Of a stretch of DNA of 64,000 bases, positions 1,032-62,949 are shown piece by piece. The position numbers and the translations under genes are program-made. The stretch is from Armatimonadota bacterium (GTDB lineage Bacteria; Armatimonadota; UBA5829; DTLH01). The notes beneath the pieces were generated by a model. That model searched no databases. It had not been told where the DNA came from and saw nothing but the letters and a program-made list of their open reading frames with translations. The stretch's first letter is position 1. Each line of letters starts with the position of its first letter. The DNA lies in contig JBBRAE010000009.1 of NCBI GenBank assembly GCA_038207085.1, positions 32,001-96,000 on the forward strand. The letters are read 5' to 3'.

Positions 1032-1034
1032 AGA

Positions 1035-1085
1035 AAAAGACGAGAACCCCGAAGGTGGCGGACCTTGCAGGTTTCTCGTCTTTTT
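1035..1085. terminator. Bidirectional intrinsic terminator between convergent genes
   Basis: AAAAGACGAGAACC...GGTTTCTCGTCTTTTT inverted repeat. Confidence 0.7.
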
Positions 1086-1145
1086 GCTAGCCTGGTTCCC
1101 GGAAAGTGGCGGTTCCCCGGGAGCCACGTCGTGTGGGTTACAGAG

Positions 1146-1718
1146 TTAGATTTTTCTCTTTCGGGCGACGAGCGCGCCGAGCCCTGCGGTGAGCGCGGCG
1201 AGCGTCATCGGCTCGGGGGTCGCGGGTGTCTCAGGCGCTGTGCCCGTGGCAGGCCAGGCATGAGACCAGCTCCAGCCGTCCCACGCACCGTCAGAAAGCA
1301 CCCTCTCGGACGACCCGACCCACGAGGATGTCCAGCTGGAGCCGTCGGTGCTAGTCCAGTACTCCCACCATCTGGTATTAGACCAATTGGAGCTGTCGTA
1401 GGACTCTTTGTAGCCGTGGTAGCTGAACGAGTTGAACAGAGGGCTTCCGTATTGTGTGTCTATGACAACATCGAGATCGGTCACGCCTGCGACTGCGGTC
1501 AGCATGTCGTATCCAGAGGCCTTGCCGTCCCAGCGATAGCCCCAGGCGAACGACTTGGAATCGAAATCGACTACAAGTATTGCCGAGTTGGCGGCGTTCA
1601 CGCTGCCGACCCAGCTCTCAATCACGACGTTGTCGTAGGACAGCGCAAACGCGCTGCTCGATAAAAGAACGGCTGTCAGAGCCACTGCGGTGATGGTCAG
1701 TTTGTTGATCGTCTTCAA
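1146..1718 (-). CDS. PEP-CTERM surface protein, Trp-rich; possible transcobalamin/DUF4430-like ligand-binding domain
   Basis: Signal peptide and C-terminal TPEPMTLAALTAGLGALVARKRKI. Internal motifs AWGYRWDG and WWEYW...VG...LSDGAWDGW. Confidence 0.8.
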   Translation of the reverse strand: MKTINKLTITAVALTAVLLSSSAFALSYDNVVIESWVGSVNAANSAILVVDFDSKSFAWGYRWDGKASGYDMLTAVAGVTDLDVVIDTQYGSPLFNSFSYHGYKESYDSSNWSNTRWWEYWTSTDGSSWTSSWVGSSERVLSDGAWDGWSWSHAWPATGTAPETPATPEPMTLAALTAGLGALVARKRKI

Positions 1719-1898
1719 TTTGCTCTTTTCTCCTGTAGAGTCATGGATTTTCGGCAGATAGCTTTACGGTCAGCCACAGAGTATTCGAGCCGAAAATCTC
1801 TCTCAACTTTCGGGTTGAAAACTGAGTGGATATACGTTAAGTCGTTGCCCGAAAGTCAACAGATTGTTAGTTTCATGATTTATTAGATTTCGCTCCCG

Positions 1899-3326
1899 TT
1901 AGCCGGCGAGATGCGTCTTCACATCACTTGCGCGCCGGATGCGAATGACTGGGAGCAGGCTTCCGCCTCCATCGGGCACACAGGTGCTTATCCCGGTGAC
2001 CGACACGTAGCTTCCAAGCGCAGGAAGGGCGCTTGCAGGCTGCAGGACGCACTTGACATCACGTCCGGAGCCGTCGCTTATCGTAAACGCAAGCGCTGCG
2101 CTGTCGACGGACTTCACACTGCCCCACGTGTGGACCAGAAGCCCGATGTTGTTTAGCCCGGAGCCGTCCTTTACTCCAAGCTGGCCCGACGAGGACGTCG
2201 ACGGGTCGAGCGAGACCGGCCCTCCGCCGATCGCTCTGTTCGAAAGCCCCAGAGGAAGAACCTCAGCAGGGCTTCCGGTCTCAAGCCAGGTCGCGCGGAT
2301 CGTCCTTTCTCCGCCGACCGTGGTCATGACACCGGACACTGTCGCAAGAACACCCCGTGGGGCGCTCTTGCCGACAACCTTGATGCCGCAGGACCGGTCC
2401 TGCGACTCAATATAGAAACAGTCACCAAGCTCTTCGCGTCCGGCGGTGACTACCTGAGGGCCAAGTGAAACGGGAACGCCGTCGGGCAGAGCCTTCGCCT
2501 GGCCGGACGACACAGGTTTGCTCACCCGAGAGAGGCCGTCCACCTCGCCGCCGTTGCTCCGCATCCTGATATACTTGATCGAGGAGAACCCCGACTCGGC
2601 GAGGTCAAATGCGGTCCCCCCCGCGCTGCCTTGATACATATCGATGGCGGCCACGACCGATTTGCCCGCAAAACTCGTGTAATCGAGCCAGTTTGGGACA
2701 GGTTTGGTCCAGTCCAGTTCGTCGCAGCTCCAAGCATGCGTTGTCTTGTCCCAGGCAAACGTGTTGATCGGCCAGTACATATCGGCTTTTGGCGTGGTGT
2801 AGGTATACCAGTTGATGAGGTCTGGGCTCACGCTTACAGAGACCGCCTCGTTCGACGTGCTGTTGACGGTACCGTTGTTCAGGTAGTAACTCTCCATGTT
2901 GGTCGCCATCTCGACGTAACCGTTGGACTTGAAAAACGAGTTGCCGTAGACGATGAACTCCTTGCCATACCAGTTGGCAGGGTCTTCGACTATGGGCTGG
3001 GCGAACTCCACGACGATCTCTCCCTGGGTGGAGACGTTGCCAAGGGTTGCAATGACTTTTGCGCCGCCTGGGTCGGTCGTGTGCGCTCCGTAGACCATCG
3101 AAATGGTGAATATTCCAGGTTCGCTTCCCATCCCCGCGGTGTCGTCGATCTTGGTCGACGGTTTTCCAAGGACCGCCGCAGCGTCGTTGTAGTAGAGCCC
3201 GGCGAGGTTTGCCGAGCTTATGACATCCGTCGCGAACCTGTTGTCGGTCCAGGCCGATACCGACCCCGCCGCCGCTGCGATGAGCGTTCCTGCTATGATT
3301 GTTTGAAGCGTTTTCACCAGTTTCAC
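1899..3326 (-). CDS. Secreted cell-surface protein with a C-terminal tandem OB-like domain
   Basis: Signal peptide ending in VSA. N-domain FATDVIS...TLG..GEIVVEF..PI.EDPAN.YG.EFIVYGN. C-domain FYIES.DRS.GIKV / GLNNIGLLV.TWG.V. Confidence 0.75.
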   Translation of the reverse strand: MKLVKTLQTIIAGTLIAAAAGSVSAWTDNRFATDVISSANLAGLYYNDAAAVLGKPSTKIDDTAGMGSEPGIFTISMVYGAHTTDPGGAKVIATLGNVSTQGEIVVEFAQPIVEDPANWYGKEFIVYGNSFFKSNGYVEMATNMESYYLNNGTVNSTSNEAVSVSVSPDLINWYTYTTPKADMYWPINTFAWDKTTHAWSCDELDWTKPVPNWLDYTSFAGKSVVAAIDMYQGSAGGTAFDLAESGFSSIKYIRMRSNGGEVDGLSRVSKPVSSGQAKALPDGVPVSLGPQVVTAGREELGDCFYIESQDRSCGIKVVGKSAPRGVLATVSGVMTTVGGERTIRATWLETGSPAEVLPLGLSNRAIGGGPVSLDPSTSSSGQLGVKDGSGLNNIGLLVHTWGSVKSVDSAALAFTISDGSGRDVKCVLQPASALPALGSYVSVTGISTCVPDGGGSLLPVIRIRRASDVKTHLAG

Positions 3327-4118
3327 CTACTTGAGATCGTACGCCGAGTCGTCATCCGAGAGCGCCCCGCACTCGGGCTCGGTTGGGTCGTAGAGATGCT
3401 TTGTTTTGGTAGAGCGGACGTGGCCGTCGGCGTATACCACGTCAGCCGCGCCATTATGTCTGAAGTGGACCTTGCCTGATGGGAAAAACTCCACATCGCC
3501 GGGTGCGCGCAGGTAGTTGTGCCCCTGCACAGGGTCGCCCCAGCCGCCTTCCGCGAATAGCACGGTGCGGGTAGGCGAGAGTATCTCCGAAATAAGGCAT
3601 GGGGTGTATCTGTAGATCGGGTCCGGATAGAACGATGGGTCATAGGCCGGGTCGCCGCCGATGTAGTCTATGTTGTACGCGTAGCCTGTAAAAGGCCGGT
3701 CGGAGTTCTTCGGCTTGAAGCTGGGGCAGGCGTTGATCTTGCCACTTCTGGTGTACTTGCCGAGCAGTCCGAGCTTATAGATGGAACCACCGCTTTGACG
3801 TATGGTAATGAAGTCCCAGGAATGCTGGACCTTTGTCCCTTGGGTGTAGTAGTATGCAGGACAGGCGCGGCTGTTGTTGTCGTCGGCGTACATCAGCCAG
3901 GCTTTGGCGATCTGGCTCATGTTGGACAAGCACTGGGACTGCTTGGCCGAGTCGCGCGCCGACGCAAGCACTGGAAAGAGGATAGCCGCAAGTATCGCGA
4001 TAATCGCGATGACGACCAAAAGCTCGATCAGTGTAAACCCATAGCATAAACGGGCTCTCGCCCGCTTCGCTTCAAATTGTGCGGTGAGAACCCGTGACAG
4101 GCAGTCTCGGTCCGCCAT
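3327..4118 (-). CDS. Prepilin-type N-terminal cleavage/methylation + H-X9-DG pseudopilin (DUF1559-like)
   Basis: [54 protein letters not shown] before the ATG at 4118. Stop abuts the next start. Confidence 0.92.
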   Translation of the reverse strand: MADRDCLSRVLTAQFEAKRARARLCYGFTLIELLVVIAIIAILAAILFPVLASARDSAKQSQCLSNMSQIAKAWLMYADDNNSRACPAYYYTQGTKVQHSWDFITIRQSGGSIYKLGLLGKYTRSGKINACPSFKPKNSDRPFTGYAYNIDYIGGDPAYDPSFYPDPIYRYTPCLISEILSPTRTVLFAEGGWGDPVQGHNYLRAPGDVEFFPSGKVHFRHNGAADVVYADGHVRSTKTKHLYDPTEPECGALSDDDSAYDLK

Positions 4119-4157
4119 CTTTGCCTCCGAAGATGAACATGTGTGACCACAAGACAT

Positions 4158-4345
4158 GAGGCAGGTCTTCTGACTTACGGATCGACCGGATCGCGGCTCC
4201 TTCCCATTCCAATTTGCATTGGAACAGTGGATATATGCCGTGTCCGTCCCCGATTACAGCGGCGGGCCCGTGATGGAATTACACCATCTTCCCTGTTCGG
4301 CTCAGCGTGTCTTTATTGCTGAGCAACCTCGTCTCGCAATATTCA
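4158..4345 (-). ncRNA. Cobalamin (B12) riboswitch
   Basis: Minus strand reads AGGTT...AACAGGGAAGATGGTGTAATTCCATCACGGGCCCGCCGCTGTAA...CCACTG...GGGAAGG...AAGTCAGAAGACCTGCC, i.e. the canonical blocks including the B12 box. Confidence 0.95.
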
Positions 4346-4354
4346 ATTTCCATC

Positions 4355-4383
4355 AGTTTACTCGCTTACAGTCCGCTTGTCAA
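4355..4383 (-). promoter_or_regulatory. Sigma70 promoter for the B12-riboswitch operon
   Basis: TTGACA-N17-TAAACT immediately upstream of the riboswitch. Confidence 0.75.
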
Positions 4384-4503: not shown

Positions 4504-5907
4504 TTGGCGTATTTGGTTAAGCAGCTTCAACTAGGAGAGGATGACGCTGTCCTGGCACTTGAGAAGGCGTGGGAGGATGTGCGGGATGCACTTTCCTCTC
4601 GCATAAACAAGCCTTCTTTTGAGAGTTGGATCAAACCGATCATTCCGTTGTCCTTTGAAGACAATGTCGCAATTTTAGGCACCCCCAGCCGATTTGCCAA
4701 GCATTGGCTTGAAGGTAAACATCTCGAAGAGATAACGGGCATGCTCGGCGAAAGCCTCGGGCACGGAGTCCGGGTTGTGCTTCGTCAGACCTCCGACGAA
4801 CAACCGGAAATATGTAAAGATCCGTTGCCTATAGCGACCAAGAGAACCAATGGTCATGCCTCGGATGAAGCCGTCTCTGTTCCGTTGAACAGTCGATATG
4901 ACTTCGACTCGTTCATCGTCGGGCAGTGCAACAGGCTGGCGCACGCCACTGCGGTGGCTATATCGGATCGTCCCGGCGGGACGTATAACCCGTTTTTCGT
5001 CTACGGACGCGCCGGGCTCGGCAAGACACATCTCCTGCATGCCGTTGGGCTTGCCATTCAGGATACGCAGCCGAACCTTCGCATCGCCTATGTGCGCGGT
5101 GAGACTTTTACTTTTCAATATATAGCCGCAGTCCGCGAGCACCGCACGGCGGAGTTTCGTCGAAGGTATCGCAACATCGACGTCTGGCTTGTCGACGACG
5201 TTCAGTTTCTTGTAGGCAAAGAAAAGACCGAGGAAGAGTTCTTCCACACCTATAACGCGCTCTACGACAGCGGCAAGCAGGTGGTGCTTTCAAGCGACCG
5301 CTCGCCAAAGGAGCTGGAGCTCGACACGCGGCTATTGTCCCGCTTTGAGTGCGGGATGGTCACCGACATCGTCTCGCCCGACCTTGAGACCCGAATTGCA
5401 ATTTTGATGGCCAAAGCCGAGCGCGAGGGGATGGACCTTCCGGGCGACGTTGCAGAGTCGGTCGCAAAACTTATTACTACAAACATCCGCCAGCTCGAAG
5501 GCGCTTTGATAAAGCTGCACGCCTATGCGTCGCTTATGAAGACCCCAATCACGATTGACCTTGCCCAGGAGACGCTCGGCGGCTATTTCGTCGGCGAAAA
5601 CGATACGATGCCGCTTGACCCGAGGCTCGTGCAGATCGCCGTATCAGAGAAGTTCCGTGTAAGCGTCGACGAGATCCTCGGCACCAAGCGCAGCCAGAGC
5701 ATAGTGCTGCCCCGCCAGGTGGCGATGTACCTCTCCCGCGAGCTCACCAATTCCTCCCTCCCCTGCATAGGCCGGGCCTTTGGAGGGAAAGACCATACCA
5801 CAGTTATGCACTCGATCCAAAAGGTTCAGAAGCTGATGCAGACAGATAAGCAGCTCGCCGATATGGTCGAAGAGATTGCTCGGCACTTGAAAAACGGGAA
5901 GAAGTAA
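4504..5907 (+). CDS. dnaA: Chromosomal replication initiator DnaA
   Basis: YNPFFVYGRAGLGKTHLL Walker A, DDVQFL, RQLEGAL, RQVAMYL, FGGKDHTTVMHS. Confidence 0.97.
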   Translation: MAYLVKQLQLGEDDAVLALEKAWEDVRDALSSRINKPSFESWIKPIIPLSFEDNVAILGTPSRFAKHWLEGKHLEEITGMLGESLGHGVRVVLRQTSDEQPEICKDPLPIATKRTNGHASDEAVSVPLNSRYDFDSFIVGQCNRLAHATAVAISDRPGGTYNPFFVYGRAGLGKTHLLHAVGLAIQDTQPNLRIAYVRGETFTFQYIAAVREHRTAEFRRRYRNIDVWLVDDVQFLVGKEKTEEEFFHTYNALYDSGKQVVLSSDRSPKELELDTRLLSRFECGMVTDIVSPDLETRIAILMAKAEREGMDLPGDVAESVAKLITTNIRQLEGALIKLHAYASLMKTPITIDLAQETLGGYFVGENDTMPLDPRLVQIAVSEKFRVSVDEILGTKRSQSIVLPRQVAMYLSRELTNSSLPCIGRAFGGKDHTTVMHSIQKVQKLMQTDKQLADMVEEIARHLKNGKK

Positions 5908-10857: not shown

Positions 10858-11730
10858 ATGGAGAGTTGAAGGGAGTATTGGGAGAAGAAGAAACACGGTG
10901 CGTTTACCCTGATTGAGCTGCTTGTGGTGATCGCCATCATCGCCATCTTGGCCGCGGTCATGTTTCCTGTGTTTGCGAGCGCAAGAGAGAAGGCCAAGCA
11001 GTCCATGTGTATTAGCAATTTGTCTCAGCTGGGCAAGGCTTTCAGGATGTACCTGGATGACAGCAACGGGACATACCCAGACGGAGCCGGTGCCTGGTAC
11101 CCTTCATCGCCAGGCCACAGTGTGGCTCGCGGTGACTGGGTGTGGTTTGATGGCAAATGGGCACAGCCGAGTCCTGGCGCAGGATTTGACTACAGCGTGA
11201 GCAAGCCGTGGGGGTGGCGGATTAACCCAGCCCTCGGCAGCCTCTGGAAGTACACCAGCAAGTCCCGAAAGATCTTTATATGCCCCTCAGACAAGCACTC
11301 GGTTAGTTCTGGCTTTACTAGATATGGAACAGGATTTGGCCTGAGCTATACTATGAATGCCGCCCTCGTCGAGGATGAAAGCTCATATGGTGACACAAGT
11401 GCATGAAGCAAGCTGGCAATTGAGGCTCAGTTACTTCGGCCGACCAAGACGGTGCTGCTTGCCGATCAGGGTGACGGGCCCATAAACCATAACCCTGTGC
11501 TCGAGAACAACCTCCAAAAGTACGGTGGGCTCGCTCCAAGCTATGATGGGATATTTATTTGGTTCCACGCCGGGCCAACAGGGATTCACAACGGCGGGCA
11601 GAACTGGTTGTTCTGCGACAGCCATGTCAAGTGGACAAGCATCAAGCAGTTCCGCGGACTTGCGTTCCGTCGAGACGGCATCCCGGGAGCGAGACAAGGT
11701 GTGATGGGTCAGTGGTGGTTCGATCTGTAA
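10858..11730 (+). pseudogene. Prepilin/H-X9-DG pseudopilin interrupted by in-frame TGA codons
   Basis: [15 protein letters not shown]...CISNLSQLG...CPSD, then TGA at 11404-11406; the same frame continues to HNGGQNWLFCDSH. The start region is also disrupted (TGA 10867-10869, out-of-frame TTG after the RBS). Confidence 0.75.
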
Positions 11731-51367: not shown

Positions 51368-54300
51368 CTACTTAACGTTCGCGGTGACCTTGTCCGCGGC
51401 TGAGTTGCCTGCGGCGTCGATCGCCTTCACTTCGATCGTGTGCGCGCCTTTGGAGAGCGCATCGGTCGTGATTGTAAACGCTTCGGAGGTCGTGTCGAAG
51501 ATACCGTCCGTGGCCGACGCAGACATCCAATCTCCGCTGTCGACTTTGAACTGCACTCCGGCAAGGGCGACGTTGTTGCCGTAGGCGTAACCCTCCACCG
51601 ACACCGTGCCGTCAACTGCGACTGTGACCGTCTTCTTGAAGACCGACACCCGCGGTGGGGTGTTTGCGACCACTACCGGCCCGACCACCTTCTCGCCGGT
51701 CTGGAAGCCGCTGGCGTTGCTTACGCGGTCGGTTGCGACTACTTTGATCATATAGCTGCCGTCGGGCACTTTGGTCGTATCCCAGTTATAGCTCGTCTGC
51801 TTGATCGAAGCGCCGCCGTTTGACGCTGGCGCGGTGTCTGCGGGCTCGGACTCGTCACCTGACGCCGAAACCGCCTTGTCGATCGCTGAGGGCGCGTCCT
51901 CGATCATCTGGTCTTTGACTTCCTGAGGGATCTCAGGGTGCTGATCGAGCTCGGTCCTTAGCTGCGCCATCATATCCGCCTTGCTCGGCTGCGCAGCCGC
52001 GGCGACTTTCTTAGGCTCGATGGGCTTTGCTGCGGCTTTGGCTTCAGACTTGGGCGCGAGAGCCGCAAGCGGGGCAGTCGACGCGGACGCCGACTTGACG
52101 CCACTTCCGATCCTCTGCCAGGTCTTACCTGAGTCCGCCGAGTAGTAGATATCGTAAGTGAGCGTGTCTTTGTCCGGGTCGCTTCCCGACCACCGGATGC
52201 TCTGATTGTGGGAGATGACCGCGCCCAACTGAGGCTCACTTATGGTCACCTTCGGGCCGCGGTTCTCCGGCAGATATGCGACCGTCACCTGCTGAAGCGC
52301 AGGGGAGGCTTCGTTTGTGCCTGAGAGTATCGCCCGGTACTGAATATACCGCGCAGCCGGGCTTGTAACGCTCTGACCGGGGCCACGCGCCTCTGACCAG
52401 GTGTTCCAAGAGCTGTCGGGCTCTGAAACGTTGCCGGTGCGGGTCAAAAGCCGGGTCGCCGCCCCCTCGGGGGTGCTTGCGATCCAGTTGATGACGCCCC
52501 ATCGGCTGGTCGTCCCTGCGTCCCGAACGCTCGACTCATAGGTCGACTGAGCGGCGGGCTTGCCGACGTAAAGCGCGGCGGAGTTGGCTGTGCCTGCGAG
52601 CACTGTGCCGTCGCCGGCGACCGCGACGCTCACGAACTGAGCTCCCGCGCGACCGCTGTCAAGCGTCATCACTTTCTCGTCCGGCGTGATCTTGATGATC
52701 TGCTCGTCGCTTGCCACATATATGTTGTCGTGCGAGTCGACGGCCATCGAGAGCGCCTTGGGGGCCTTGTCGTAGACCGTGCTGACCTCACCCGAGGGCT
52801 TGATCTTGTAGACGTTGCCTTTGGCAGTGCCTGTCGCCGCGTAGACGTTGCCGCGCGAGTCGACCGCAACGCTTGCAATCGAGTCCTCAGCCGCGTTATA
52901 GAGCGGGCTCGCCTTGCCGTCCGGGCTGATCTTGTAGACCACCCCGTCGCGTCCTGCCCCTGCGTAGATGTTACCTGAAGCGTCGATCGCAAGCGCAAGG
53001 ATCGAAGCGTCGTTCACGCTCGCGAACAGCTCACCCTTGCCGCCGGGGCTGATCTTGTAGACCTTGCCCGCGTCGCCCACGCCCGCGAAGATATTTTCAC
53101 CGGACGCTGCGAGTGCGAGCACATACTTTTCGCTCGTGGTAAAGAGCAGGCTCCCTTTGCCCGAGGAGTCGATCTTGAACACCTTGCCGTGGGGGCTCGT
53201 TCCTGCGTAGAGGTTCCCCGAGCCGTCTCGCGCAAGCGACTGAACAGCGATCTCGCCGGTCTTGAACACCACCGACGCCTTGCCGTCCCCGCTCACATGA
53301 TAGACGTTTCCGTTGGAGCCTGTGCCGATATATGCGCCGCCCGTCCCGTCGGGGAGGACCTTCCAAGCGTACATCTCAGGAAGCTCCGCGAGCTTGGCGA
53401 GCGCCGGAACCATTACAACCTCGTCCGAGGTCGAAACCGCCGTGCCACTGAAAGTCCCGTTTGCAAAGTCCTTGTAGGTGGTCTGCTTCCAGACCGCTGG
53501 CTGGCGTCCTACGGGCTTTTCTGCGGGTTTGGCGTCACTGCCTGCGTTTGGCGTGACAGGGGCGTCTACGGGGTTGGCAGGTGTTGCTACGCCTGCCGGT
53601 GGCGCGTCCACGGGTGACTCGTCGACCGAAACTGACGGCTGAGCCGGCGTTGCGAGCTGAACGGGTGTGCTCGCCGAGTAGCCGCCGAAGTCATCGTTCA
53701 TCATCTCATCGCCGTCGGGTGGCTGAGGAGGCGTGGGCTGGCTGTCGGGTGGGCCGTCGGGGCCGCCTGATGGCGGCTGCATTGCTCGTTTCTCACCGTG
53801 GCGCACGCGCTCGATCTTGATCGGCACGCTCTGCTCGCCCATCATAACGTAGTCCATCGGGACGACGGTCTTCACTTCCTCGCGCTCGGTGCGCCCGGCG
53901 CTCGCTCGCGGGTTTTTCATCACCCCGGCGATCGCGTCAGGGAGCCCCGAGAGCTTCTCACCGCCGACACTGACCGAGCTTGAGGGCAACAGAAGCTTTG
54001 CGACGAGGTCGTTGTTCTTCTCGCGCTCAAGGAACTTGTCGATCACCTGCTGGACGTTGTCCGCCGAGCTTCCGCCGCCCGAAGACATTCTAGGAGCGCC
54101 GTCTGCTGCGATGACGATCATCGGCCCATCACCGCCGCCGGACATGCCGCCCTTGACCTGCAGGGTGACCCGTCCGTCGGGCGCGTTTTCGGGGATCTTG
54201 ATCGCAATCGTCTTGGTGAATCGGTCACCCTTGTACGGCCTCATCTCGACCGCAACTTTGACGGTGTCGCCCGGCTCATATTTGCTCCGGTCGACGATAA

Positions 54301-55663
54301 TGCGTTCCACGCTCGCCGTCTTGCGCCCGGACCGAATCGTAACCGACATATTGACCGATTTGACGTTAATCGGATGGAACTTGTTGTTGGAGAGAATATT
54401 GACGAGCCCCTGCATATCATCGAGCGCCGCCGCTTCGATGGTTGTGGGGTCGAAGAACTCGTTTTCGCGGACGATCTTGCCGACCTCGTCTGCGTTGATC
54501 TCTGTTCGGACCTCGGCCATCGCGTCGTTCGGGATGCCGTTTAGCTCGGTGATCGCTTCAGCCGCCGAAAGGACGATCAGCTTGGGCGCGAGCATGGGGT
54601 GGTTGATCACGTTGACGTGCAGCGTCTTTTTTCGCCCGATCGCCTGGTTGTCGACGTTGATCGTAAGCGGGATGGTGTCGGCCATCTTGCCGATCTCGCC
54701 GCCCACCGACCAGGGCCTGTCCTGTGTGATGTGCCCGACGACCTTCATCGGCATTGCGAGCTTGAACGACACCTGGTAGCTCGGGAACACGTCTAGGACG
54801 TAAGCGGTTGAAAGCGGTGCGTCGATCGGCCCGATGTTGAACATCGGGTGACCGAAGCCGACCATCTTGTTCCCTCGCCTGTATGTGAGCGTTCCGGTCG
54901 CGGTCATATCGATATCGCCTGTTGTAAGCGACAGACCAAATGCGCTTCCGGGCCTAAGCTCTGTCGGGACGATGTCTGTCTTGCCACCGGGGCCTGCCAC
55001 GGGCTGGAGGCCGAACGGCTCGAATATCTCAGCGAGCTTGTTCAGTCCGCGCGCGCTTATGCCGCTCACCGAGACCGGGGTCATAAGCGGGGTCATGACA
55101 AGCGTGCCGACGCCCGCTGCCGTGCCTGCGTCCGCGGGATTTCTGATCTCGATCCTGTTATAGGTGCTCGCGCCGCTTTTGACCGGCGTGTCGAGTGTAG
55201 ATAGTCCCGAGGGCTTTGACGGAAGCTTGGGGTCGAGTGAGTCGAGCATATCCTCGATCGGCGTCAGCATAGCAAGCGGTTCTTTGGAGAACCCGCCGGG
55301 GCCGTAGGCGACCGCGCCGATGATCTTGCCGTTGATGTACACCGGGCTTCCGCTCATCCCCTGCATGATGTTGGCCTGGCGTTCAGTGATCGGCCCGCCT
55401 GACATGCGAGCGAGGATGAGGTCCTTGCCGTTGTTCATCTTGCGCATCAGGCCGATGATCTCGACGTTGAACTTCTCGATTTTTGTGCCTTTGAATACGG
55501 TCAGGCCATAGGCTTTCATGCCCGGCTTGACCTGCGACAAGGGCATAATATCCTTGTAGTCTGCCTGGACAACGCCCGGGGGCAGTGCGGCCGCCGGAAG
55601 AACAGCAGCAAGCGATGCCACCATCGCCACTGCGATAAACAATCTGATTGGCTTTCGCAACAT
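51368..55663 (-). CDS. Secreted SpoIVB/peptidase S55-domain protein fused to beta-propeller and Ig-like domains
   Basis: QGMSGSPVY, GFGHP, repeated LAxDxxGNxYAG.GxVYKI blades, C-terminal Ig-like AIDAAGN. Confidence 0.85.
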   Translation of the reverse strand: MLRKPIRLFIAVAMVASLAAVLPAAALPPGVVQADYKDIMPLSQVKPGMKAYGLTVFKGTKIEKFNVEIIGLMRKMNNGKDLILARMSGGPITERQANIMQGMSGSPVYINGKIIGAVAYGPGGFSKEPLAMLTPIEDMLDSLDPKLPSKPSGLSTLDTPVKSGASTYNRIEIRNPADAGTAAGVGTLVMTPLMTPVSVSGISARGLNKLAEIFEPFGLQPVAGPGGKTDIVPTELRPGSAFGLSLTTGDIDMTATGTLTYRRGNKMVGFGHPMFNIGPIDAPLSTAYVLDVFPSYQVSFKLAMPMKVVGHITQDRPWSVGGEIGKMADTIPLTINVDNQAIGRKKTLHVNVINHPMLAPKLIVLSAAEAITELNGIPNDAMAEVRTEINADEVGKIVRENEFFDPTTIEAAALDDMQGLVNILSNNKFHPINVKSVNMSVTIRSGRKTASVERIIVDRSKYEPGDTVKVAVEMRPYKGDRFTKTIAIKIPENAPDGRVTLQVKGGMSGGGDGPMIVIAADGAPRMSSGGGSSADNVQQVIDKFLEREKNNDLVAKLLLPSSSVSVGGEKLSGLPDAIAGVMKNPRASAGRTEREEVKTVVPMDYVMMGEQSVPIKIERVRHGEKRAMQPPSGGPDGPPDSQPTPPQPPDGDEMMNDDFGGYSASTPVQLATPAQPSVSVDESPVDAPPAGVATPANPVDAPVTPNAGSDAKPAEKPVGRQPAVWKQTTYKDFANGTFSGTAVSTSDEVVMVPALAKLAELPEMYAWKVLPDGTGGAYIGTGSNGNVYHVSGDGKASVVFKTGEIAVQSLARDGSGNLYAGTSPHGKVFKIDSSGKGSLLFTTSEKYVLALAASGENIFAGVGDAGKVYKISPGGKGELFASVNDASILALAIDASGNIYAGAGRDGVVYKISPDGKASPLYNAAEDSIASVAVDSRGNVYAATGTAKGNVYKIKPSGEVSTVYDKAPKALSMAVDSHDNIYVASDEQIIKITPDEKVMTLDSGRAGAQFVSVAVAGDGTVLAGTANSAALYVGKPAAQSTYESSVRDAGTTSRWGVINWIASTPEGAATRLLTRTGNVSEPDSSWNTWSEARGPGQSVTSPAARYIQYRAILSGTNEASPALQQVTVAYLPENRGPKVTISEPQLGAVISHNQSIRWSGSDPDKDTLTYDIYYSADSGKTWQRIGSGVKSASASTAPLAALAPKSEAKAAAKPIEPKKVAAAAQPSKADMMAQLRTELDQHPEIPQEVKDQMIEDAPSAIDKAVSASGDESEPADTAPASNGGASIKQTSYNWDTTKVPDGSYMIKVVATDRVSNASGFQTGEKVVGPVVVANTPPRVSVFKKTVTVAVDGTVSVEGYAYGNNVALAGVQFKVDSGDWMSASATDGIFDTTSEAFTITTDALSKGAHTIEVKAIDAAGNSAADKVTANVK

Positions 55664-58884: not shown

Positions 58885-61800
58885 GTGATATCAAGGATTT
58901 TCAAGCTGACTTTGTCAGCCGCAGTGGGGCTTTCGCTGCTGACTGCAACGGGGGCTTTCGCCGCAGACCGGCACTGGGTCGCAAAAGAGGCCGGGAAATG
59001 GTCAGAACCAGCCAACTGGACCGGAGGAGTGCCCGGGCCCAAAGACACCGCCGTGTTTGACGCAGGCGGCGCGGGCAACGCGACCGTCGACGCGGCATCT
59101 TCCGGGGCTGTCGGAAGCGTAAGCGTCCTTGCCGGCTACAAAGGGACAATCACCCAGGAGCGCGGCCTCTCCGTCAATGGCAATATGAAACTTGCGGGCG
59201 GCTCAGCTACGGGTTGGACGTTTGCCGAAGACAAGCCCGCCGGGCTTGCCGTAAAGGGGAACCTTTCTATCGCTCTTGGCAGATCTATCACCTGCACCCG
59301 CTCCTCTACCAACAGTTTTGGCGCTGGCCGGCTGATCACCGTGGGCGGCAACCTGACCGTCGACGGCGCGATCACAGCCGACGGCAAGGGCTTTATGCGC
59401 GGTCCCGGCACTCCGGTCCTCCCGGTTGTGGCGGAGACCAAGGATCCTTCTGGCGTGCAGGACAGATACGTGTCTGGTGCGGACATTGAGCAGTACAAAA
59501 ACGCCGCTCCGATCTCCCCTGCGGGCCCGGGCCACGGTGGCCGCGGGGCAGGCATCCACCACAACCCCAACGGCCAGTACACCGTGCAGCCTCACTCCTA
59601 CTATTGGACAGAACCCCTCGGCTCAGGCACCTGGAAGTTCCCGGGTGGCGACACCTACGGCTCTGTTACCGCTCCGACAAGCCTCGGAAGCGGGACCGAC
59701 GCCGACACCAGCTTCGACCCGAGGAACTCCTATCCATTTGACGCTGAGAACACCTTTTGGACCCACAAGGGCGCGTTCGGCGGCGGGGCGATCAAGCTCG
59801 TAGTCGGCGGTGTGACCACAGTAACCGGGCGCATCAGCGCAAACGGCGCGCCTTCAGGTGAAACTGGCGCAAGCGGCGGCTCGGTATACATTATTACCGG
59901 AAAGCTCGCGGGCGACGGCCTAGTCCGCGCCAACGGAAGCGACGGCCCCGGCCAGGGGCACGGACGGGGCGCAGGCGGCGGCGGACGCGTCGCAGTGGTG
60001 CTGAAGAACGCATCGAGCGTATTGGGCGTCATCCTGCAGGCCTACGGCGGCGAGGGCAGATGGTCCCCGGCCGCCGCAGCAGGCACGATCTACCTCGAAG
60101 GCCCGAAAGACAAGGGGCACGGCACGCTCGTCGTCGACAACCGCAACAGCCTGGTGCGCAGTATGTTCGACATTTGCACCTCGCTTTCCGACAAAGAAAA
60201 AGCAAGCTACACTTTTAAAAGCGTCGAGCTCAAAAACCACGCAGTCTTATACGTCGGCAAGGACGACTCGCTCACCTCATCATCCGTATCGAGCCGCAAC
60301 GCAAACTTGCTTGTAGAAGGCAAGCTCGCAAGCCCGAAACTAGTCGGGCTTAAGTCAAAGCAGCTTGTCAAACCCCAGGACGAGATCACTCGCACGTCCG
60401 GCGCGGCTGTGACTGAGCTTACCTTTGGCTCGGCCTACACGATGAAGCAGGAGCTCCTCAACCGAAGCTTTCAGATGTCGCTTTACCCCTACAAGGGCAA
60501 GATCGACGTTGCGGGCGACCTCAGCACCTACGCTTACCAAAACGAAGTCGCGGGCGTCAAGACCGCCGACGTTGCGCTCGTTGCAAAGTCCGGTGAAGTC
60601 GTCTCAACCGGCAGGCTCGTCTTCAACGACAAACGCTTCGGCGAGACCTCGCTTGATGCGAACATGAAAGAGGGCGCTTACCAGATCAAGATCACCCTGG
60701 ACAACGGCCTCACCATGCGTCCGCTCGTCTTTGACCGCAAGGTCTTCCCGTGGGAGCGCAACACGCTTGGCCTGACGGATAAGATCTACCCGCCGTTTGC
60801 CCCGATTACGGTATCCGGGCGCGACATCAACCTTTGCGCCGACCGGGTCTACACGATGAACGGCTTTGGCCTGTTCGACAAGATCGTAAGCCAGGGGAAA
60901 GTCATCTCAAGCGGGCCTGCCGTGGTCAAACTTGTGACCGCAAGCGGTGAAAAGAGCTGGAAGCTCACCCAGGGCAGCTTCACAAGCGTCAAGCCTAATG
61001 TCGTCGAGTATGTCGCACAGGCCGACGGAGGAGCTGCAAAGCTCTCAACCAAGTCGACAACCGAGTTCGACGGCTGCGCCAAGGTCGAGATGGACATCAC
61101 CCCCGGCACGACAGGTGAAACTATCGAGTCGATGTACATTGAGATCCCTTTGAAGGACTCCGAAACGCCACTCATGCACGCCTGCCAGCCTCAGGCTATG
61201 AGATTCAACTATGCCGGCAAGACCCCCCGCGGAGGACAAATCGCCTGGGAGGACGGCGTCTGCCCGTGGAACGACCGTCGCCCACCGCTTTGGAGCGTCA
61301 AACCCGGCACCGAAGGGCAGAACGACGGCGTCATCTGGGACTCGCGCAACATCCGAAACGTAGCATTCTGGACCGCGATCCCCTGGATACCATACTTCTG
61401 GGTAGGCGGCGGCGAGCGCGGACTCTCCTACTTTGCCGACAGCTCAAGCGGCTGCGTTCTCGACCCCGAAAAGCCGAGTCAGCAGATCGTCCGGCAGGGC
61501 GACCAACTGATTCTGCGCATTTATCTCGTCAACAAACCAAGCGTCGTCACAAGCGCGCGCCGTGTCGTCTTCGGCCTGCAGGCAAGCCCCGCCAAGCCGA
61601 TGATGCCGGACTGGAGGCAGGTCGACCGCTTCGCCATCTGGGGCTACATGACCCCGGCGATGGGCATGTTCTGCTGCACCAAGTACCCGGTAGACCGGGA
61701 TATGTCCTTGGTCGACAAACTCATCCAGAACGGCCGCGACACCAAGGCAGGCAAAGAGGTCAACTCGCAGTTTATCTACGACAAGGTGGACACGCTTACG

Positions 61801-62949
61801 GCCAGGGGATGGAATGAGAGCATGACCCCCGACGCCTACATCCGCCGCTGGGCGCAAGACCCCTGGAACCAGGCATGGAAGAACGGGCCGATGAAGAGCG
61901 TCTACTTTGAGGAGCACTGGACCGATCCCGGTCACTCAGACGTAGACATGTTCGGTAACGAGTGGGCCGCGCGCAGGTATCTGGGCTACTGGCCGATCCG
62001 CGACAAGGACCGCGTCGTCTACGACTCTCCCTACGCCGTGGAAATGGGCCTGACAGGCAAGTTCATAAACGGCGTCTACCCCGAGAGCCTGGTCGACTAC
62101 TCGGTTTACTACGGCAACGAGTATCTGAAGCGCGGGATAGGGCTCTACTTCGACAACACCTACCCGCACATCAGCATGAACCCGAGCGTCTCCGACGCCT
62201 ACATAACCGACGAGGGCAAGATTCAGCCCGCCGATAACATCTGGAACCAGCGCGATTACTACAAGCGCATCTGGAACCTGATCAACTACTACAACGAGCG
62301 TGGGATGAACCCGCCGGTGTGGTTCAGTCAGCACATGACCAACACGATGATCATCCCCTGGACCGAGTGGACGACGTGTAATCTCGATAACGAGAACACC
62401 TGGACAGATGTCGCCCGCGGCATACGTCCGGCGATGTTCCCCTGGGACTATGCGCTCACCGAGACCGCAGGCCGCCAGGCCGGGACCCCCTGCCACAGCC
62501 ACTACGCGATGGCGGGCAAGGACGGAACGCCACTCCGCGAGTGGGGAATTCGCATGGTCCATGAGATCACCAACCGGGAGAACACTGAATACGAGAAGAT
62601 GATTCGGGAGTTCGGCTACGGCCGGGACGGCGTTCAGGTGATCAACTACTGGTCGGGCGACCTGTCGGTTAAGGTCTCAAACGAGGACGTGAAGTGGCTT
62701 GCGGTGGTTCGTAAGAGTGACCCGACGACTATGCTCGTCCTTCAAAGCTGGTCATTTGACCCAACCACCACCAAGATCAGCCTGCCCGGCTGCCGCGTGT
62801 GGAAAAATGCCCTGACCGGCGAGACGATCCACGCAAATTACTATGGGGCAGCCGAGGTAAGCTTCAAGGATAGCTACGGCACGCTGATACTCGTAGGCGC
62901 GGAGACCTCCTACGACCTCGCAGACTGGAAAACCCCTCTGGCCAAGTAG
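58885..62949 (+). CDS. Large secreted protein: Gly-rich beta-solenoid-like N-region plus a putative glycoside-hydrolase-like (DUF6067-like) C-region
   Basis: Signal peptide; GGGAIKL, GGSVYI, GGGGRVAV repeats; GLQASPAKP, GLYFDN; divergent from the LacI gene. Confidence 0.65.
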   Translation: MISRIFKLTLSAAVGLSLLTATGAFAADRHWVAKEAGKWSEPANWTGGVPGPKDTAVFDAGGAGNATVDAASSGAVGSVSVLAGYKGTITQERGLSVNGNMKLAGGSATGWTFAEDKPAGLAVKGNLSIALGRSITCTRSSTNSFGAGRLITVGGNLTVDGAITADGKGFMRGPGTPVLPVVAETKDPSGVQDRYVSGADIEQYKNAAPISPAGPGHGGRGAGIHHNPNGQYTVQPHSYYWTEPLGSGTWKFPGGDTYGSVTAPTSLGSGTDADTSFDPRNSYPFDAENTFWTHKGAFGGGAIKLVVGGVTTVTGRISANGAPSGETGASGGSVYIITGKLAGDGLVRANGSDGPGQGHGRGAGGGGRVAVVLKNASSVLGVILQAYGGEGRWSPAAAAGTIYLEGPKDKGHGTLVVDNRNSLVRSMFDICTSLSDKEKASYTFKSVELKNHAVLYVGKDDSLTSSSVSSRNANLLVEGKLASPKLVGLKSKQLVKPQDEITRTSGAAVTELTFGSAYTMKQELLNRSFQMSLYPYKGKIDVAGDLSTYAYQNEVAGVKTADVALVAKSGEVVSTGRLVFNDKRFGETSLDANMKEGAYQIKITLDNGLTMRPLVFDRKVFPWERNTLGLTDKIYPPFAPITVSGRDINLCADRVYTMNGFGLFDKIVSQGKVISSGPAVVKLVTASGEKSWKLTQGSFTSVKPNVVEYVAQADGGAAKLSTKSTTEFDGCAKVEMDITPGTTGETIESMYIEIPLKDSETPLMHACQPQAMRFNYAGKTPRGGQIAWEDGVCPWNDRRPPLWSVKPGTEGQNDGVIWDSRNIRNVAFWTAIPWIPYFWVGGGERGLSYFADSSSGCVLDPEKPSQQIVRQGDQLILRIYLVNKPSVVTSARRVVFGLQASPAKPMMPDWRQVDRFAIWGYMTPAMGMFCCTKYPVDRDMSLVDKLIQNGRDTKAGKEVNSQFIYDKVDTLTARGWNESMTPDAYIRRWAQDPWNQAWKNGPMKSVYFEEHWTDPGHSDVDMFGNEWAARRYLGYWPIRDKDRVVYDSPYAVEMGLTGKFINGVYPESLVDYSVYYGNEYLKRGIGLYFDNTYPHISMNPSVSDAYITDEGKIQPADNIWNQRDYYKRIWNLINYYNERGMNPPVWFSQHMTNTMIIPWTEWTTCNLDNENTWTDVARGIRPAMFPWDYALTETAGRQAGTPCHSHYAMAGKDGTPLREWGIRMVHEITNRENTEYEKMIREFGYGRDGVQVINYWSGDLSVKVSNEDVKWLAVVRKSDPTTMLVLQSWSFDPTTTKISLPGCRVWKNALTGETIHANYYGAAEVSFKDSYGTLILVGAETSYDLADWKTPLAK

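Follow-up and report, generated by a model that had tools for sequence, protein, structure and literature searches.

A cobalamin-riboswitch cassette with a pseudopilin that looks like an undescribed route of vitamin B12 scavenging

A riboswitch and three genes for exported proteins

The sequence analysed here, hereafter the window, is a stretch of 64,000 nucleotides (nt) from the genome of an Armatimonadota bacterium (contig JBBRAE010000009.1, positions 32,001-96,000, assembly GCA_038207085.1; 3.35 Mb in 83 contigs, rated 100% complete with 1.99% contamination). On its reverse strand, it carries a cobalamin (vitamin B12) riboswitch followed by three genes, which encode a prepilin-type pseudopilin, a secreted protein of 475 amino acids (aa) and a 190-aa protein with a PEP-CTERM sorting signal (table 1). 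This cassette looks like an undescribed B12 scavenging route, in bacteria without a recognisable form of the usual outer-membrane B12 importer, BtuB.

The riboswitch, already proposed in a sequence-only reading of the window, is borne out by Infernal and Rfam: the RF00174 model is matched over its full length (1-189 of 189) with 114.2 bits, for a gathering score of 31.5 and an E-value of 7.2e-28. It is the sole Rfam match at gathering score in a scan of the whole window, and a whole-genome RF00174 search of the 3.35-Mb assembly returned no second copy. The aptamer lies within the 5' leader of the pseudopilin gene, shares its strand and ends at 4143, the likely start codon being the ATG at 4118, which is preceded by GGAGG as read from the sequence. 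The sigma-70 promoter announced in the same reading holds in part: the motif is present (table 1), but it counts as a consensus match only, because three such sites occur in the region versus 1.5 expected.

The gene order agrees with that reading as well. Indeed, the stop codon of the pseudopilin gene (TAG, 3329-3327) abuts the GTG start (3326) of the 475-aa open reading frame (ORF), the PEP-CTERM gene comes next on the same strand, and the ORF list shows no btuB, btuCDF, tonB or energy-coupling-factor (ECF) transporter gene within the riboswitch-controlled unit. Beyond the terminator-like hairpin that closes the unit, ORFs 1-426 and 423-1031 lie on the opposite strand.

Table 1. Features of the riboswitch-controlled unit, in window coordinates.
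Feature	Position	Strand	Remarks
Sigma-70-like promoter match, TTGACA-17-TAAACT	4355-4383	-	10/12 consensus positions
Cobalamin riboswitch aptamer, RF00174	4143-4346	-	114.2 bits, full model
Prepilin-type H-X9-DG (DUF1559-like) pseudopilin, riboswitch-linked subfamily	3327-4118	-	ORF open from 4157
Secreted 475-aa protein: signal peptide, BtuH-like fold (~24-270), two OB folds (~290-475)	1899-3326	-	Predicted model
Intergenic gap between genes 2 and 3, 180 nt	1719-1898	-	No terminator-like site called inside
190-aa protein: signal peptide, transcobalamin-beta/DUF4430-like (SLBB) fold (~37-158), PEP-CTERM signal	1146-1718	-	Predicted model; TIGR02595
Terminator-like hairpin and U-run closing the unit	1032-1088	-	121-nt stretch, -48.3 kcal/mol, z -4.37, 0/200 shuffles as good

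Predicted identity of the three proteins

Pfam and NCBIfam scans of the three cassette proteins, together with Pfam scans of 24 family members, returned sorting and pilin motifs only. That the first gene encodes a prepilin-type protein, as had been read from the sequence, is confirmed by matches of its N-terminus to N_methyl (33.1 bits, cut-off 21.2) and TIGR02532 (33.1 bits, cut-off 16.3), the motif G/FTLIE with Glu5 and a hydrophobic helix both being present. The protein scores below the curated cut-offs of DUF1559 (PF07596; 18.6 versus 23.3) and of TIGR04294 H-X9-DG (16.8 versus 19). Despite these sub-threshold models, the H-X9-DG motif (His, nine residues, Asp-Gly) is readable in the translation, and its residues H195, D205 and G206 are kept in 34, 36 and 33, respectively, of 36 riboswitch-linked pseudopilin homologues. 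The protein-language-model neighbours of the pseudopilin are N_methyl and SBP_bac_10 clusters, at 0.98 (Atlas); SBP_bac_10 is the Pfam identifier of DUF1559, which we take as placing this family among the solute-binding-protein families.

The two other proteins, designated as surface proteins in the sequence-only reading, both model as folds of proven B12-binding domains. The 475-aa protein has a signal-peptide-like N-terminus and matched no family in the Pfam and NCBIfam scans. Its model, built from 38 homologues, is of high quality by its own scores (predicted local distance difference test (pLDDT) 91.9, predicted template-modelling score (pTM) 0.88); as modelled, residues ~24-270 share the fold of the C-terminal B12-binding domain of BtuH2, and residues ~290-475 form two OB folds. 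Foldseek on the whole model returned mostly OB/HIN matches, with 8blw_B at rank 4 (E 8.4e-4, template-modelling (TM) scores 0.21/0.16), a match that is uninformative by itself. Residues 388-660 of 8blw_B fit the C-terminal ‘H-domain’ of BtuG1 (~250 residues), which PMC10404256 describes as homologous to BtuH2 and calls a second B12 site. In BtuH2 itself, the B12-binding C-terminal domain corresponds to residues 317-593 and the conserved B12 contacts are Tyr510, Trp511, Trp577, His476, Asn399 and Gln333 (PMC8941943).

The 190-aa protein has a signal peptide and a body that matches no family. Its sorting signal is recognised by TIGR02595 (23.6 bits, cut-off 16) and lies under the cut-off of the Pfam PEP-CTERM model (14.9 for 20.7); read directly, the C-terminus displays PEP, a hydrophobic stretch and RKRK. 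Together with two exosortase matches in the window genome, these features identify the protein as a PEP-CTERM/exosortase substrate. A model built from 23 homologues (mean pLDDT 79.7, pTM 0.70) predicts a beta-grasp SLBB fold of the transcobalamin clade. Indeed, the top 18 Foldseek matches in the PDB consist entirely of chains of transcobalamin, haptocorrin and intrinsic factor, of the beta-domain of transcobalamin alone and of 3u7z, a DUF4430 protein, with E-values from 2.8e-3 and target TM scores up to 0.70-0.77. The SLBB transcobalamin clade was proposed by Burroughs et al. to act as B12 scavengers in bacteria without B12 synthesis (PMC1796856). The family of the 190-aa protein is a large one: among 1.84 billion proteins, it is represented by 2,576 clusters at E ≤ 0.001, of which 1,551 remain at ≤ 1e-10 and 599 at ≤ 1e-30 (representative clusters). 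We expect with good confidence that the 475-aa and 190-aa proteins bind corrinoids.

Recurrence of the cassette and distribution of BtuB

One genome per species was scanned for the 190-aa family, which yielded 219 relatives; the best 80 loci were kept, from 79 genomes (17 loci in Armatimonadota, 25 in Planctomycetota, 21 in Verrucomicrobiota, six in Desulfobacterota, two in Cloacimonadota and nine in others). When 12 of these loci were submitted to Rfam, 11 displayed a cobalamin-clan riboswitch upstream of the gene and on its strand (10 RF00174, one AdoCbl-II), the twelfth having just 960 bases of upstream sequence. A profile made from these riboswitches and searched with nhmmer matched 67 of the 80 loci, every time on the strand of the gene, and whole-genome Infernal searches mapped by coordinates gave five further riboswitch loci, so that nhmmer and Infernal combined place a riboswitch upstream in 71 of the 80 loci. 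Among the nine others, the sequence ends within 1 kb upstream in five (L011, L018, L019, L063, L064), three have no riboswitch (L014, L021, L023) and the riboswitch of the last one (L070) lies downstream instead. Exactly one RF00174 match exists in 46 of the 79 genomes, and in 44 of these 46 the cassette locus carries a riboswitch match.

Owing to contig ends, the counts of accompanying genes are lower bounds: at least 43 of the 80 loci have a BtuH-like domain on the same strand, and a pseudopilin homologue lies in the cluster in at least 45 loci at E < 1e-15 and 55 at E < 1e-5. At the latter threshold, pseudopilins were detected in 15/17 Armatimonadota, 19/25 Planctomycetota and 18/21 Verrucomicrobiota loci, and in none of the six Desulfobacterota and two Cloacimonadota loci. 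The riboswitch and all three genes occur together in at least 30 of the 80 loci, in Armatimonadota, Planctomycetota and Verrucomicrobiota. The recurrence of a riboswitch-pseudopilin-surface protein trio, on which the sequence-only reading depended, is thus established in three phyla. Cultured bacteria are among the carriers, examples being the Gemmata (L068) and Chthoniobacter (L065) records and the isolate Pontiellaceae B12227 (L050).

The internal order of the cassette differs between groups, being riboswitch-pseudopilin-BtuH-like-SLBB in Armatimonadota and riboswitch-SLBB-BtuH-like-pseudopilin in the Planctomycetota-Verrucomicrobiota-Chlamydiota (PVC) bacteria, and both binder domains are fused in one ORF in seven loci. 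BtuF-like genes are found in seven loci (three were tested, all Peripla_BP_2), FecCD and ABC ATPase genes (BtuCD-like) in three loci each, and a PQQ-type propeller recurs in three loci. Two Planctomycetota genomes possess a second riboswitch operon. In G004, it encodes an SLBB-PEP-CTERM homologue, a dockerin-bearing BtuH-like protein and a pseudopilin (L105, G004:C107); in G025, it encodes a BtuH-like protein followed by a pseudopilin and then a BtuF-like protein (L106, G025:C165).

Some loci displayed further associations. A family of ~260-525 aa is present in six riboswitch-linked loci (L029 7617-8792, L066 1097-2395, L078 7567-8718, L050, L070 and L072), and the three of its six members that were tested gave no Pfam match; these ~400-aa proteins may be a further component of the cassette. 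In Cloacimonadota, the SLBB-like domain is located inside proteins of 728 aa (L046 6929-9115) and 891 aa (L073 6464-9139) that end with a type IX secretion system (T9SS) C-terminal sorting domain and are encoded directly behind a cobalamin riboswitch, so that the binder module appears to be used there with a different surface-sorting system. A Desulfosarcina locus contains a DUF4465 gene (L070 8973-9782; BtuJ-type B12 binder, E 7.8e-53) behind a second riboswitch and upstream of the SLBB and BtuH-like genes, thereby bringing three binder types into one unit.

As judged from sequence relationships, the riboswitch-linked pseudopilin is a dedicated subfamily and a specific partner within the cassette. 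In 14 of 15 PVC genomes, the riboswitch-linked copy is the one that best matches the window pseudopilin, among up to 53 paralogues (matches at E ≤ 1e-12), the fifteenth genome (G038) being unclear. These 14 linked copies all share contig and strand with the riboswitch and lie 2-4 kb downstream of it, and in G004 and G025, which have two riboswitches each, the two best matches are both riboswitch-linked copies. The own paralogues of the window genome score ≤ 75 bits; the ten closest linked pseudopilins elsewhere, mostly from Armatimonadota, score 172-268 bits, and most linked PVC pseudopilins ~95-122 bits, with a tail down to ~65. A quick maximum-likelihood tree was computed on 71 rows (36 linked pseudopilins, 20 PVC paralogues, seven own-genome paralogues and eight unlinked copies from the loci; three own-genome paralogues without the trimming motif were left out). 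On this tree, the linked label needs only two changes, a value as low being reached in 0 of 500 shuffles, and the PVC linked pseudopilins form a clade (Shimodaira-Hasegawa-like approximate likelihood ratio test (SH-aLRT) 97). Comparison of the linked group with the paralogues also singles out positions that are conserved in the former only, among them T118, G119, G189, R194 and Y234 (mature numbering). Elsewhere in the window, a 160-aa ORF (10924-11406, forward strand) matches the cassette pseudopilin at E 1e-17, with no Pfam match at 1e-8, and is probably a short pilin-like paralogue.

From its gene content, the window organism is an apparent B12 auxotroph that would depend on imported B12: its genome has eight B12-binding-domain matches, six of them over the cut-off, and neither CobS, CbiB nor MetE was found in it. 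It contains one BtuC-like permease and one BtuF-like protein, both away from the cassette, and two secretins. No riboswitch precedes its single TonB-dependent receptor, which falls short of the BtuB model TIGR01779 at E ≤ 1e-5. This model has a narrow cut-off, and because E. coli alone passes it among the controls, E-values and riboswitch adjacency were used to assess BtuB. None of the 30 genomes with riboswitch and trio passes the cut-off, 22 of the 30 have no match at E ≤ 1e-10, and none has a riboswitch-adjacent TIGR01779-like match. In contrast, seven of the eight genomes with binders but without the pseudopilin have TIGR01779 matches at ≤ 1e-30, and the BtuB-like match is riboswitch-adjacent in six of them (G036, G059, G062, G068, G071 and G075). 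This opposition between the two sets of genomes suggests that the pseudopilin tracks the absence of a B12-regulated BtuB, and not the presence of binders. The lack of BtuB supposed in the sequence-only reading is accordingly upheld, in that neither the window genome nor the 30 trio genomes have a riboswitch-linked BtuB-like receptor.

Two ORFs were noticed around the BtuC-like permease. One, of 480 aa, lies directly downstream of this only BtuC-like permease of the genome (L083 4134-5576, reverse strand; G000:C35) and has no Pfam match and a faint LptD-like NCBIfam match; the other, near the permease, is pilin-like (L083 10486-11226).

Proposed role and competing explanations

On balance, these sequence data make it probable that the cassette is a B12-repressed corrinoid acquisition unit, whose pseudopilin would supply the outer-membrane step; taken more broadly, some role of the pseudopilin in an envelope step is quite probable. 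In such a unit, scarcity of B12 would lead the riboswitch to permit expression of the three exported proteins. The BtuH-like corrinoid binder, carried on its two-OB-fold stalk, would be one capture protein, the SLBB corrinoid binder would be sorted to the cell surface via its PEP-CTERM signal and exosortase, and both would capture corrinoids outside the cell. The pseudopilin would be processed like a pilin and inserted in a secretin-based machine of the type II secretion system (T2SS) or type IV pilus (T4P) type encoded elsewhere in the genome, and would thereby provide the outer-membrane step that is the job of BtuB in other bacteria. In the reading that we prefer, extension and retraction would bring the corrinoid, or a binder loaded with it, into the periplasm by way of the secretin, and import would be finished by the genome's single BtuF-like protein and single BtuC-like protein. 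The direction of this transport, i.e. import via a pseudopilus through the secretin, is put forward tentatively, at somewhat less than an even chance. The most specific version, in which a dedicated H-X9-DG clade forms or tips a retractile pseudopilus that hauls B12 or the loaded binder through the secretin as a TonB- and BtuB-independent import, is possible but doubtful. The sequence-only reading, which made the pseudopilin a ligand-specific tip or adaptor of an importing machine, is supported in part: the riboswitch, the recurrent trio and the lack of a riboswitch-linked BtuB stand, whereas the tip or adaptor role and its import direction are proposals.

The proposed unit can be compared with several known systems. 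In E. coli, BtuB-TonB with BtuFCD constitutes the riboswitch-controlled first step of B12 uptake. The BtuF/BtuC-like inner-membrane route is present in the window genome too, whereas the regulated unit has no TonB-dependent receptor, and 30/30 trio genomes lack a riboswitch-linked one. Type IV competence pili take up DNA through a secretin. The cassette pseudopilin has the pilin-type N-terminus with E5 that is found in competence pili and T2SS pseudopili, and secretins exist in the genome; retraction would be assumed by analogy with these systems. Unlike in competence pili and T2SS, however, a vitamin would be carried, alone or in complex with a protein, and assembly genes are not linked. We know of no case in which uptake by an H-X9-DG pseudopilin has been shown.

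Closest in working principle is the extracellular BtuH/BtuJ/BtuG relay of Bacteroides, which feeds BtuB. The btu loci of Bacteroides thetaiotaomicron associate riboswitch-controlled BtuB-BtuG with the accessory surface binders BtuH and BtuJ (PMC8941943, PMC10404256, PMC13398666, PMC13616437). Both these loci and the cassette are under B12-riboswitch control, have several extracellular B12 binders per locus (predicted ones in the cassette) and sometimes have BtuF/BtuCD genes alongside, and the 475-aa protein is predicted to share the fold of the BtuH B12-binding domain. Nevertheless, the cassette is not a member of the BtuB-centred system of Bacteroides: it occurs in different phyla, without BtuB and BtuG; its proteins would be anchored by PEP-CTERM/exosortase or by an OB-fold stalk instead of lipidation; its second binder has a transcobalamin-beta fold; and a dedicated pseudopilin is its conserved third component. 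The 190-aa protein can likewise be compared with the beta-domain of transcobalamin, intrinsic factor and haptocorrin and with bacterial DUF4430/SLBB proteins (2pmv, 4kkj, 2bb6, 5no0, 3u7z), which are likewise secreted or on the cell surface; the hosts of the bacterial ones were noted to be without B12 synthesis (PMC1796856), as is the case here. It differs from these proteins in having neither the alpha/alpha toroid partner domain nor detectable sequence membership, in its PEP-CTERM anchor (versus a Gram-positive anchor) and in its partners, a pseudopilin and a BtuH-like protein versus CbiO/CbiQ.

The same components could, in principle, work outwards, with a cargo-matched pseudopilin letting a shared T2SS push or display the binders and B12 entering by another route. 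T2SS pseudopili normally export proteins, we know of no established mechanism for the passage of PEP-CTERM proteins across the outer membrane, secreted binders are encoded with the pseudopilin wherever it occurs, and the genome has secretins, all of which speaks for such an export adaptor. It is, however, at odds with the Desulfobacterota and Cloacimonadota loci, which carry binders without a linked pseudopilin (0/6 and 0/2, respectively) and with riboswitch-linked BtuB-like receptors, and with the second riboswitch operon of G025, in which the order binder, pseudopilin, BtuF places the pseudopilin among uptake genes. We consider export or display unlikely, and favour import, because the pseudopilin is complementary to BtuB and because some operons include BtuF/BtuCD directly. 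Another explanation, which we hold to be improbable, dispenses with the fibre: the pseudopilin would be a periplasmic receptor held in the membrane by its N-terminal helix, binding a corrinoid and handing it to BtuF/BtuCD. The Pfam identifier SBP_bac_10 borne by DUF1559, clusters without pilus assembly genes, and a putative ligand site that T118, G119, R194, G189 and Y234 could form would all suit such a receptor; but a BtuF-like binding protein is already available in the window genome and in seven loci, the conserved G/FTLIE with E5 indicates that the protein is processed by prepilin peptidase and assembled, and the outer-membrane step would be left unexplained.

The cassette might also hoard or withhold corrinoids at the surface, for competition or storage, the pseudopilin being a scaffold. 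A surface B12 reservoir has been proposed as the role of BtuJ1 in Bacteroides, according to a preprint (bioRxiv 10.1101/2025.07.01.662609), yet the cassette is the only B12-regulated unit of an apparent B12 auxotroph and stands beside BtuF/BtuCD genes in several genomes, which makes pure sequestration very improbable. As for incidental linkage, where one of many pseudopilin paralogues would lie by chance beside B12 genes, the up to ~50 paralogues of Verrucomicrobiota and some Planctomycetota genomes might seem to invite it. However, the linked copy is the best cross-phylum match in 14/15 genomes, a same-strand pseudopilin is in the cluster in 52/63 loci of the three phyla, the linked copies cluster in the tree, and the linkage persists through changes of gene order. 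The best-match, locus-count and tree evidence thus effectively excludes chance adjacency.

Several points weigh against an import route as proposed here. Import and export are not separated by the present evidence, and a common fold does not prove a common ligand for either binder. In PDB profile searches, BtuH (7biz) was not found with the 475-aa family, transcobalamin and 3u7z were unmatched at E ≤ 10 with the 190-aa family, and the pseudopilin matched solved pilins over the N-terminal helix only, with no solved relative beyond it; DUF4430 was not among the Pfam families matched by the 190-aa protein or the 24 scanned members of its family. In the tree, the group that unites all linked pseudopilins has 40 rows, of which four are unlinked copies, and moderate support (SH-aLRT 85). 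Pilus/T2SS assembly genes were sought behind the riboswitches and none recurs in the clusters. The absence of BtuB is soft evidence, because most of the compared genomes are metagenome-assembled genomes and the TIGR01779 cut-off is narrow, and the contrast between pseudopilin and BtuB rests on few phyla, hence on few independent comparisons. Within the cassette, co-transcription of the 190-aa gene is an assumption, given the 180-nt gap before this third gene. Finally, the minimum-free-energy fold pairs the B12-box UGCCUC with the GAGGCA of the ribosome-binding site, but its z-score (-0.22) is no better than that of shuffles, and we therefore claim no particular switching mechanism.

Riboswitch-controlled surface B12 scavenging is a known kind of system, to which the present work adds the pseudopilin-containing cassette. 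Full-text literature searches found no paper that describes such a cassette or links DUF1559, H-X9-DG or pseudopilins with B12, and the papers found that name DUF1559 mention the family in passing only. The H-X9-DG/DUF1559 pseudopilins are among the largest function-unknown families in Planctomycetota, Verrucomicrobiota and Armatimonadota. For this orphan family, the linked subfamily would provide the first candidate ligand and, since the riboswitch fixes the ligand context, it offers the whole H-X9-DG family a testable substrate. If import by a retractile pseudopilus is true, PVC bacteria and Armatimonadota would have, in their hundreds of further H-X9-DG paralogues, substrate-specific uptake adaptors for the same machine. 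Planctomycetota, Verrucomicrobiota and Armatimonadota are widespread B12 users, and as no BtuB is evident, the cassette may be the main B12 acquisition route of these phyla. Two new candidate binder families also emerge, the PEP-CTERM family, with no Pfam match beyond the sorting signal, and a BtuH-like module outside Bacteroidota; both are relevant to predictions of how B12 is exchanged in sediments, soils and waters.

Three other ORFs of the window deserve mention. Divergent from the cassette and ~120 bases past the promoter-like site, an ORF of 467 aa (4504-5907, forward strand) reads like DnaA by eye, so that the cassette would adjoin a probable replication-origin region. Further along, a 1431-aa ORF (51368-55663, reverse strand) has a single weak match to the SpoIVB peptidase S55 domain, and a 1354-aa ORF (58885-62949, forward strand) a single weak match to the GH123 N-terminal domain.

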